In this document: piece after piece, positions 5,086 to 6,593 of the stretch
How positions within the stretch are numbered: the stretch's first letter is position 1
Layout: the number at the start of each line of letters is the position of its first letter
DNA from: a virus
Lineage: Duplodnaviria > Heunggongvirae > Uroviricota > Caudoviricetes
Reading direction: 5' to 3' (one strand)
IMG/VR virus record: IMGVR_UViG_646311924_000020
Length of the DNA stretch: 43,730 nt
Translations under genes and position numbers: made by a program
The notes under the pieces: model-generated
What the model was told of the DNA's origin: nothing
The model's input: only the letters and a program-made list of their open reading frames with translations
The model's database searches: none

Positions 5086-6021
5086 TCAGTAGTTATGTAC
5101 TGAAGGAGGTAATTCTTTATTCTTAAGTCTCATCCATGCGGAAAGATTCGTTGGTCCGTCTGGCTCATTAATATCAACATCTCGTGTGTGGTTTATTAAA
5201 ACGTCTCTCGCCATTCCGATAACATACGAGAACTCATGACCGTAGTCGTAGCATCTGCCGGAATAGTTCGATTGAATTTGTTTTAGCGCCGGATACAGTT
5301 CGCGGAATAATGCCTGTGAGCGGTTGGCATAATCCCATAACCATACAAGGCTGTTTGCTTCTTTTGCAGAAAGCTCGTTGGTTTTCTTCTCTTGTTTGCC
5401 AATGAACTCACCTTCAAGTGGAACTCGAGCTGCAAGTGATAGTGCTTCGGTAAACTGCTCCTCACTGATTTCTTTGTACGAACATCCAAAATGGGATTTT
5501 AGTGACGACCACATGGTGATCATCGCCTTAGCCTGTTTTTCTTTTGGCAGAGACTGACCGCGACTCATGACGAGTTGTTTAATGGCTTCCTGCTGTTCAG
5601 TGGTGATTTTACCCGGCAACGCCTTTTTAGCTTTGCGTGGGTTAAATACATGACCTTTAGTCCAGTAGTCATGCAGCACGCTAAAGCATTCTTCCTGGTA
5701 CTGAATCAGTTTATCACGGATGTCAGCACGAACTTTCTCAGGGTTGATGCTGAACAGCCATCCATTTAACTTCTTCAAAGGAAGGCAGAGTAGCTTACGA
5801 AGCTTCCCATCAGCGGCAACCATGTTCATATGAACACAGTTGAATTTGCTAATCTGCTTCATGAGTTTTGTTTGCTGCGTTGACCAGCTCATTCCAAGGT
5901 TTTCAACGATTGGCTTCATCGCAACATATGCAACTCCGGCAGCCATGGCGGTGATAATTTGCTGACCGTTGAATGGTACATAAGAGGTGTTCACTGCTTC
6001 TAAAATTGCTATACTATTCAC
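5086..6021 (-). CDS. ant: antirepressor Ant (P22 Ant-like)
   Basis: Large ORF directly downstream of arc; synteny mnt-arc-ant as in P22 immI. The ORF-track ORF begins at a TTG (6087); I place the start at GTG 6021 preceded by GGAG, giving (M)[20 protein letters not shown] and a 68 nt arc-ant spacer. Confidence 0.8.
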
Positions 6022-6089
6022 GTTGGTTTTTCTCCACGGATTTACTGACAACCGAAGCCCTGACTGTTCCCGCAGTTGGGGCTTCAACT
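6022..6089 (+). ncRNA. candidate sar-like antisense RNA in the arc-ant spacer
   Basis: Plus-strand -10-like TATACT at 6010-6015 would start a transcript near 6022, antisense to the ant RBS; the spacer contains a nested hairpin (GAAGCCC...GGGCUUC) ending near the arc stop. Length and position match what I recall of P22 sar (about 68 nt). Inference only. Confidence 0.35.
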
Positions 6090-6251
6090 TTACGCGCCAA
6101 TGCGCCCTTCCTTCTTAAAGCTTTCCATTACTCTCTGATAAATCTCAGAGTTAACAGACCGACCATTCTCTTCCGCCACCTTGCGGACCAAATCCAATAC
6201 TTCTTTAGGCCACCGCAAATTGAACTGCGGCATCTTGCTCATTCCTTTCAT
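6090..6251 (-). CDS. arc: Arc repressor (ribbon-helix-helix)
   Basis: 53 aa [53 protein letters not shown], essentially the recalled P22 Arc. Start at the internal ATG 6251 of ORF-track ORF 6090-6314. Confidence 0.95.
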
Positions 6252-6267
6252 ATTCACCTCACAATAT

Positions 6268-6284
6268 AGGTCCACCGTGGACCT
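6268..6284. promoter_or_regulatory. Mnt operator (17 bp perfect palindrome)
   Basis: AGGTCCACCGTGGACCT at 6268-6284, a perfect palindrome in the mnt-arc divergent region; matches the P22 Mnt operator as I recall it. Confidence 0.85.
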
Positions 6285-6293
6285 ATTGAGAAT

Positions 6294-6314
6294 ATAGTAG
6301 AGTGCTTCTATCAT
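6294..6314. promoter_or_regulatory. Arc operator (21 bp)
   Basis: Reverse complement of 6294-6314 is ATGATAGAAGCACTCTACTAT, matching the recalled P22 arc operator; lies between arc and mnt starts. Confidence 0.85.
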
Positions 6315-6341
6315 GTCAATACACTAACTTGGAGTGATGGC

Positions 6342-6593
6342 ATGGCTAGAGATGATCCGCACTTTAACTTCCGTATGCCTATGGAAGTAAGGGAGAAATT
6401 AAAATTCAGGGCGGAGGCGAATGGGAGATCAATGAACTCCGAGTTGTTACAAATCGTCCAAGATGCTCTATCAAAACCATCGCCTGTGACTGGATATCGC
6501 GACGATGCAGAACGACTCGCTGATGAGCAGTCAGAGCTTGTTAAGAAGATGGTGTTTGATACGCTGAAGGATTTGTACAAAAAACCCACCTGA
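6342..6593 (+). CDS. mnt: Mnt repressor
   Basis: 83 aa MARDDPHFNFRMPMEVREKLKFRAEANGRSMNSELLQIVQDALSKPSPVTGYRDDAERLADEQSELVKKMVFDTLKDLYKKPT, essentially the recalled P22 Mnt. Confidence 0.95.
   Translation: MARDDPHFNFRMPMEVREKLKFRAEANGRSMNSELLQIVQDALSKPSPVTGYRDDAERLADEQSELVKKMVFDTLKDLYKKPT

Follow-up and report, generated by a model that had tools for sequence, protein, structure and literature searches.

A probable P22-specificity immI module with a rare GTG start codon for ant in a P22-like prophage of Escherichia coli

Does a temperate phage genome that encodes a CI-type repressor also carry a complete second immunity region of the P22 type, and if so, where does translation of its antirepressor begin? 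The question is raised by the mnt–arc–ant locus (5086–6593) of IMG/VR record IMGVR_UViG_646311924_000020, a tailed-phage sequence analysed here over its whole length of 43,730 nt (the window, to which all coordinates refer). A first-pass annotation made from the sequence alone had claimed a complete P22-type immI region at this place, with Mnt and Arc near-identical to the P22 proteins, both operators exactly preserved, and Ant starting at a GTG codon rather than at the TTG of the mechanical gene listing. Our comparisons bear this out. The region is very probably an intact immI module of P22 specificity, the ‘ant moron’ of an Escherichia coli P22-like prophage as found in O111:H8 strains, with GTG as a derived ant start. 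Every sequence feature defining P22 immI for which we tested (mnt, arc, ant, operators, promoters, sar and location) is present; mnt, arc, ant, both operators and the promoters Pant and Pmnt are all intact and lie where the annotation had put them. The module is already known and ordinary: RefSeq records of E. coli contain identical DNA, its products annotated as Ant and ‘Arc family’ proteins, and the only unusual detail of the module is the rare start codon of ant.

As references we used the curated P22 record BK000583 with its feature table and the corresponding record of phage epsilon34, both aligned to the window. From Psar to the mnt stop codon (5990–6593) there are 14 substitutions in 604 positions relative to P22 and nine relative to epsilon34, with no insertions or deletions, and the stretch containing the operators, Pant, Pmnt and the 5' start of mnt (6268–6388) is 100% identical to P22. 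The Mnt operator AGGTCCACGGTGGACCT, a 17-bp palindrome of the form AGGTCCAC(C/G)GTGGACCT, occurs at 6268–6284 with zero mismatches (chance expectation 0.04 at up to three mismatches); the 21-bp Arc operator ATGATAGAAGCACTCTACTAT occurs at 6294–6314, also with zero mismatches (none in 100 shuffles, expectation 0.00 at up to three mismatches). Thus the pairwise alignment with P22 immI, which had been suggested as a check, leaves neither operator different from its P22 counterpart; the base flanking the Mnt operator at 6267 is T in the window and C in P22. No second copy of either operator was found across the 43.7-kb window with up to three mismatches allowed.

Both operators are embedded in a pair of overlapping divergent promoters within the 90-bp intergenic control region (6252–6341). 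A generic consensus scan found these promoters independently, at the positions annotated in P22: Pant, which drives arc and ant, at 6291–6319 on the minus strand (TTGACA, 17-bp spacer, TATATT; 11 of 12 consensus matches), and Pmnt at 6286–6314 on the plus strand (TTGAGA, 17-bp spacer, TATCAT; 10 of 12). The Arc operator, annotated as O-arc in P22, sits between the −35 and −10 hexamers of Pant, where it also overlies the Pmnt spacer and −10, and the Mnt operator lies directly downstream of the Pant −10 and directly upstream of the Pmnt −35. Among 36 related contigs, defined as IMG/VR contigs with the same immI specificity as the window, the Arc operator is exact in 35 and the entire control region is identical to that of the window in 18.

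The mnt gene (6342–6593, plus strand) encodes an 83-aa maintenance repressor with a ribbon-helix-helix domain and a C-terminal tetramerisation helix; it is identical to P22 Mnt at 81 of 83 positions (differences N54D and T82P) and has the same N-terminal DNA-reading strand, ARDDPHFNFR. It matches Pfam Arc (E 4e-30) and Repressor_Mnt (E 7e-19), and a PDB sequence search returned the P22 Mnt structures 1MNT (E 1e-45) and 1QEY. The arc gene (6090–6251, minus strand) encodes a 53-aa ribbon-helix-helix repressor that matches Pfam Arc (E 1e-30) and the P22 Arc structures 1ARQ and 1PAR (E 5e-31), and differs from P22 Arc at a single position, R16K, where it carries the epsilon34 allele, which is also the majority allele. 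Near-identity to P22 therefore holds for these two proteins, in contrast to Ant (see below). The Arc allele of the window recurs in 28 of the 36 related contigs and its Mnt allele in 17; its arc, mnt and control-region alleles are the commonest in this set, while P22 itself carries minority alleles, so that the differences between the window and P22 are ordinary polymorphism. The same three alleles are shared with, or very near, those of epsilon34, a viable temperate phage with an immI that the authors describing it judged ‘apparently functional’ (PMC2629481). Two antisense open reading frames (ORFs) opposite arc and mnt (5973–6269, plus strand, 98 aa; 6311–6589, minus strand, 92 aa) had no independent support and were set aside as mechanical ORFs.

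The module also contains a component absent from the first-pass annotation, the antisense RNA sar (6022–6089, plus strand). It is recognised by Rfam RF00262 over model positions 1–68 of 68 (95.6 bits against a gathering score of 43, E 2.1e-19), folds into two hairpins as expected (−29.4 kcal/mol, z = −4.8) and is annotated at the equivalent place in P22 and epsilon34, with two bases different from P22 sar. It is complementary to the ant leader, that is, the arc–ant intercistronic region, including the ant Shine-Dalgarno sequence GGAG (6032–6035, minus strand). Its promoter, Psar (5987–6015, plus strand; GTGTTC, 17-bp spacer, TATACT), lies within the 5' end of ant; it was missed by the generic sigma-70 promoter scan and was located solely through ungapped alignment to the annotated P22 Psar, from which it differs in the −35 hexamer at 5992 (C instead of A), as does that of epsilon34, while the −10 is the same.

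The position of sar bears directly on the second part of our question, the start of Ant. The mechanical ORF list opens ant at TTG 6087 (5086–6087, minus strand), which would add 22 aa to the N terminus and make Ant 333 aa long. The frame is indeed open from this codon, and TTG is a permitted start, but we give this start next to no chance and reject it in favour of GTG 6021. Over 6016–6026 (plus strand) the window reads ATTCACGTTGG and both P22 and epsilon34 read ATTCATGTTGG, which makes GTG 6021 the exact homologue of the ant ATG annotated in those two phages. The GGAG at 6035–6032 stands 10 nt from GTG 6021, the spacing seen in P22, whereas TTG 6087 has no Shine-Dalgarno sequence and lies 2 nt past the arc stop codon. 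The 66 nt from TTG to GTG are the sar-complementary leader, through which, along with its hairpin, ribosomes starting at the TTG would have to translate. The Prokaryotic Genome Annotation Pipeline (PGAP) likewise starts the gene of the identical prophage at GTG 6021 (WP_001084290.1, 311 aa, ‘phage antirepressor Ant’). Finally, in the 97 related contigs compared, the frame ahead of the homologous start stays open for between 15 and 42 codons, and in 19 of them an in-frame stop 15 codons upstream closes it short of the TTG-equivalent position; an N-terminal extension of Ant is therefore not conserved.

The GTG is a rare, derived and apparently clonal allele, a point mutation of an ancestral ATG. 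The 27-mer surrounding the start is shared by 100 IMG/VR contigs; ATG is found in 99 of these, and the single contig with GTG is identical to the window over 4950–6650. The 61 bp at 5991–6051 find an exact full-length match in nine of the 269 complete E. coli genomes that carry the region, at least five of the nine being O111:H8, and match with one or two mismatches in 253; in the one genome inspected from this mismatch band, that of strain ETEC1749, the sole difference is a T at 6021. GTG is a normal bacterial start codon, used by 14% of E. coli genes, and GUG supports initiation in E. coli. The change most likely does no more than lower Ant output. Relative to the sar transcript the altered base lies at −1, and since T to C at this position retains a pyrimidine, we expect the change to be neutral for Psar or to have little effect on it.

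Read from the GTG, Ant is a 311-aa protein (5086–6021, minus strand; stop codon at 5086–5088) with Pfam matches to P22_AR_N (aa 14–125, E 8e-45) and P22_AR_C (aa 211–283, E 5.6e-30), both far above the gathering score. Its first 123 residues are identical to epsilon34 Ant at 121 positions and to P22 Ant at 93, and its last 111 residues at 110 and 101 positions, respectively. Between the two domains, alignment to P22 and epsilon34 Ant delimits a middle cassette (aa 124–200; 5422–5652, minus strand) that has no meaningful identity to the cassette of those phages and is 11 aa longer. At the DNA level the cassette matches E. coli phages N7 and HZ41 with 99.1% identity, Salmonella phage UPF_BP1 with 97% and, with 93.5%, the ant genes carried by many Shiga toxin (Stx)-converting phages; its breakpoints, near 5418 and 5654, recur among related contigs. 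Judged by sequence, Ant is a mosaic of N- and C-terminal domains of the epsilon34 type and a middle of the Stx-phage Ant type. The only Pfam match to the cassette, ORF6C, falls below threshold (18.5 bits against 22, E 0.002), and a PDB sequence search at E ≤ 0.01 returned no solved structure related to Ant. Elsewhere in E. coli, ant is split into two ORFs (ETEC1749, NZ_CP122712.1) or encodes a protein with the N-terminal domain only, arc and mnt being intact in these cases, a pattern suggesting that ant has been lost repeatedly while the repressors were kept.

The roles of mnt, arc, sar and ant are known from P22 (PMC2629481, PMC11016777, PMC8022706), and near-identity to P22, with all sequence parts of the circuit intact and the DNA-recognition elements nearly or fully P22-identical, allows a mechanism to be proposed. 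In a lysogen, Mnt made from Pmnt would occupy its operator near the Pant −10 and keep Pant off; no Ant would then be made, and the CI-type prophage repressor would stay active. On infection, or on loss of Mnt, Pant would be on, and Arc and Ant would be produced. Arc, bound between the Pant hexamers, would in turn shut off both Pant and Pmnt, while sar, transcribed from Psar within ant, would pair with the ant leader and Shine-Dalgarno sequence and leave residual ant mRNA untranslated. Ant itself is predicted to bind and inactivate lambdoid repressors of the CI/C2 type. Since the operators and repressors are of P22 specificity, immI homoimmunity would be expected between this prophage and both P22 and phages of the epsilon34 type.

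A second immunity layer, as the first-pass annotation had it, presupposes a first, and three of its genes are encoded in the window: CII (35573–35869, minus strand; Pfam Phage_CII, E 5e-32), Cro (36011–36226, minus strand; HTH_3) and a CI/C2-type repressor (36302–36997, plus strand; HTH_3 and Peptidase_S24, E 9e-29). This immC region (35573–36997), for which the PGAP annotation of the 99.95%-identical prophage is further evidence, is the primary immunity region and the presumed target of Ant. The C-terminal Peptidase_S24 half of the repressor seems close to that of lambda CI, with a different N-terminal helix-turn-helix, a likeness that would bear on which repressors Ant can target.

The rest of the window is that of a P22-like prophage, with P22-type portal, coat and terminase genes, and the prophage is 99.95–100% identical to one located in the sbcB–dacD interval of E. 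coli O111:H8 genomes. It contains two copies of the IS3-family insertion sequence IS1203 in inverted orientation relative to each other (15260–16569 and 18439–19749), each with an ALIL frameshift pseudoknot recognised by Rfam (16118–16234, minus strand; 18774–18890, plus strand). The pair brackets the coat gene: one copy splits the scaffold gene (ORFs 17898–18386 and 19709–20104), and the second is found within a small ORF that directly follows the coat gene. With its scaffold gene split, this copy of the prophage should be unable to assemble virions. In O111:H8 strain 05-3004 the prophage carries IS1203 at other sites (ninH and near int), and the scaffold IS1203 junction of the window was not found as a single piece among the complete genomes searched.

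Several points weigh against an immI module working as in P22. In a defective prophage, selection on immI may be relaxed, and the change from ATG to GTG could be an early step of decay, as ant is already broken in related E. coli prophages such as that of ETEC1749. The expression and activity of the circuit are predicted here from its parts, and binding of the prophage's own repressor by an Ant whose middle cassette has been exchanged is a presumption. Moreover, mnt transcripts were undetected in lysogens of the related E. coli phage Kapi1 (PMC12922286), and the P22 rules may not hold unchanged in E. coli relatives. On a rival reading, immI is a decaying and functionally irrelevant remnant in a dead prophage, with a GTG that is neutral or causes loss of function and an Ant that is effectively not made. 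The interrupted scaffold gene, with the second IS1203 just past the coat gene, the rarity of the GTG allele among viral contigs and E. coli genomes alike, and the split or truncated ant genes of some relatives are all consistent with it. Yet all three ORFs are full length, the operators, promoters, sar and terminators are intact, and GTG stands as an ordinary start behind an unchanged Shine-Dalgarno sequence. At least mnt must remain functional while ant is intact, because unrepressed Ant induces the prophage in P22 (PMC12922286). We therefore consider decay to be improbable, at roughly one chance in ten, and prefer an intact module of P22 specificity.

A more far-reaching interpretation of the GTG, and one that we regard as a very long shot, is that it is an attenuating mutation fixed in the Shiga toxin-producing O111:H8 lineage because this Ant is able to act in trans on CI-type repressors made by other lambdoid prophages of the same host, Stx prophages included. 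It draws on the clonal distribution of the allele, on the cassette shared with Stx phages and on a precedent in Salmonella, where trans-acting antirepressors were reportedly described by Lemire et al. in 2011. If true, the immI of a defective P22-like prophage would tune the induction of Stx prophages. Apart from its correct annotation, the locus is of little consequence. Few regulatory modules of phages have been studied as well as immI, and the additions made here are small: sar, which like the operators could usefully enter the existing annotation, the mosaic structure of Ant and the rare lineage-specific GTG allele.

Read against the P22 immI map in reversed orientation, the module occupies the canonical site between the ejection-protein genes (ORF at 7560–9401, minus strand) and the tailspike gene (2970–4907, minus strand), in the late operon of a P22-like phage that carries immC. 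An intrinsic terminator (5049–5068, minus strand; hairpin GACCCAGC-TTCG-GCTGGGTT followed by a T-run) lies 3' of ant and upstream of the tailspike gene, and a terminator is annotated at the equivalent position in both P22 and epsilon34. At the other end, a hairpin (ACCCACC-TGAA-GGTGGGT, 6584–6601) found by the terminator scan overlaps the mnt stop codon and is likely a terminator shared by mnt and the convergent gene at 6610–7095 (minus strand); the epsilon34 record has a rho-independent terminator at the same place. The T-run of this hairpin is better on the minus strand, where the convergent gene would be terminated, and the T82P difference between the Mnt proteins of the window and P22 falls within its stem. 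The convergent gene, a putative lipoprotein gene, is a 161-aa ORF (140 aa according to PGAP); its product is a homologue of epsilon34 gp15 and matches the PEGA domain weakly (E 0.0055).

How the region compares with known phages can be stated more exactly. A megablast search with 4950–6650 against phage records matched 248 of them, the best being UPF_BP1 (96.6%, in one piece) and epsilon34 (98.4%, in two); P22 matched at 89.2%, in two pieces. In P22 (BK000583, 14519–15993) the gene order, the orientation and the site between gene 16 and gene 9 are the same, and so are the operators, Pant, Pmnt and the 5' region of mnt; by contrast, P22 Ant has 300 aa, a different middle cassette and an ATG start, and the P22 genes downstream of mnt, orf59a and sieA, are absent from the window, where they are replaced by the convergent gene and an hkcB-like gene. 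The closest characterised phage is epsilon34, whose immI or ‘ant moron’ comprises genes 14–18 (Villafane et al., 2008; PMC2629481); it shares the gp15-like and hkcB-like neighbouring genes and the terminator that closes mnt, but its Ant has the P22-type middle cassette and an ATG start, and the outer position of its Mnt operator (6268) is G rather than the A of the window and P22. The Stx-converting and other lambdoid phages of E. coli (among them Stx2 phage 1717, YYZ-2008 and 2851) were compared at ant only; they share the middle cassette at 93.5% nucleotide identity within a broader ant similarity of 80–90%.

A 2008 study (PMC2629481) described the ‘ant moron’ and how it varies among P22-like phages, E. 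coli prophages included. Some IMG/VR contigs, such as L092, L084 and L021, agree with the window in sar, Psar and the 5' end of ant, but their similarity to it ends exactly at the arc stop codon and sar 3' end (6090–6091). Beyond this point they encode a different Arc-like protein of 46–50 aa and a divergent Mnt-like protein of 82–83 aa, lack the P22 operators, and have an extra ORF of 60–67 aa, rich in cysteine (CxxC...CxxC), between arc and sar. They resemble immI modules of other repressor specificity, joined at a fixed recombination point. Contigs of this kind make up about 40 of 100 related contigs. Elsewhere in the window, two adjacent tRNA genes (27878–28030, minus strand) lie downstream of the Q antiterminator gene, and in the identical O111:H8 prophage they are annotated as tRNA-Asn and tRNA-Thr.

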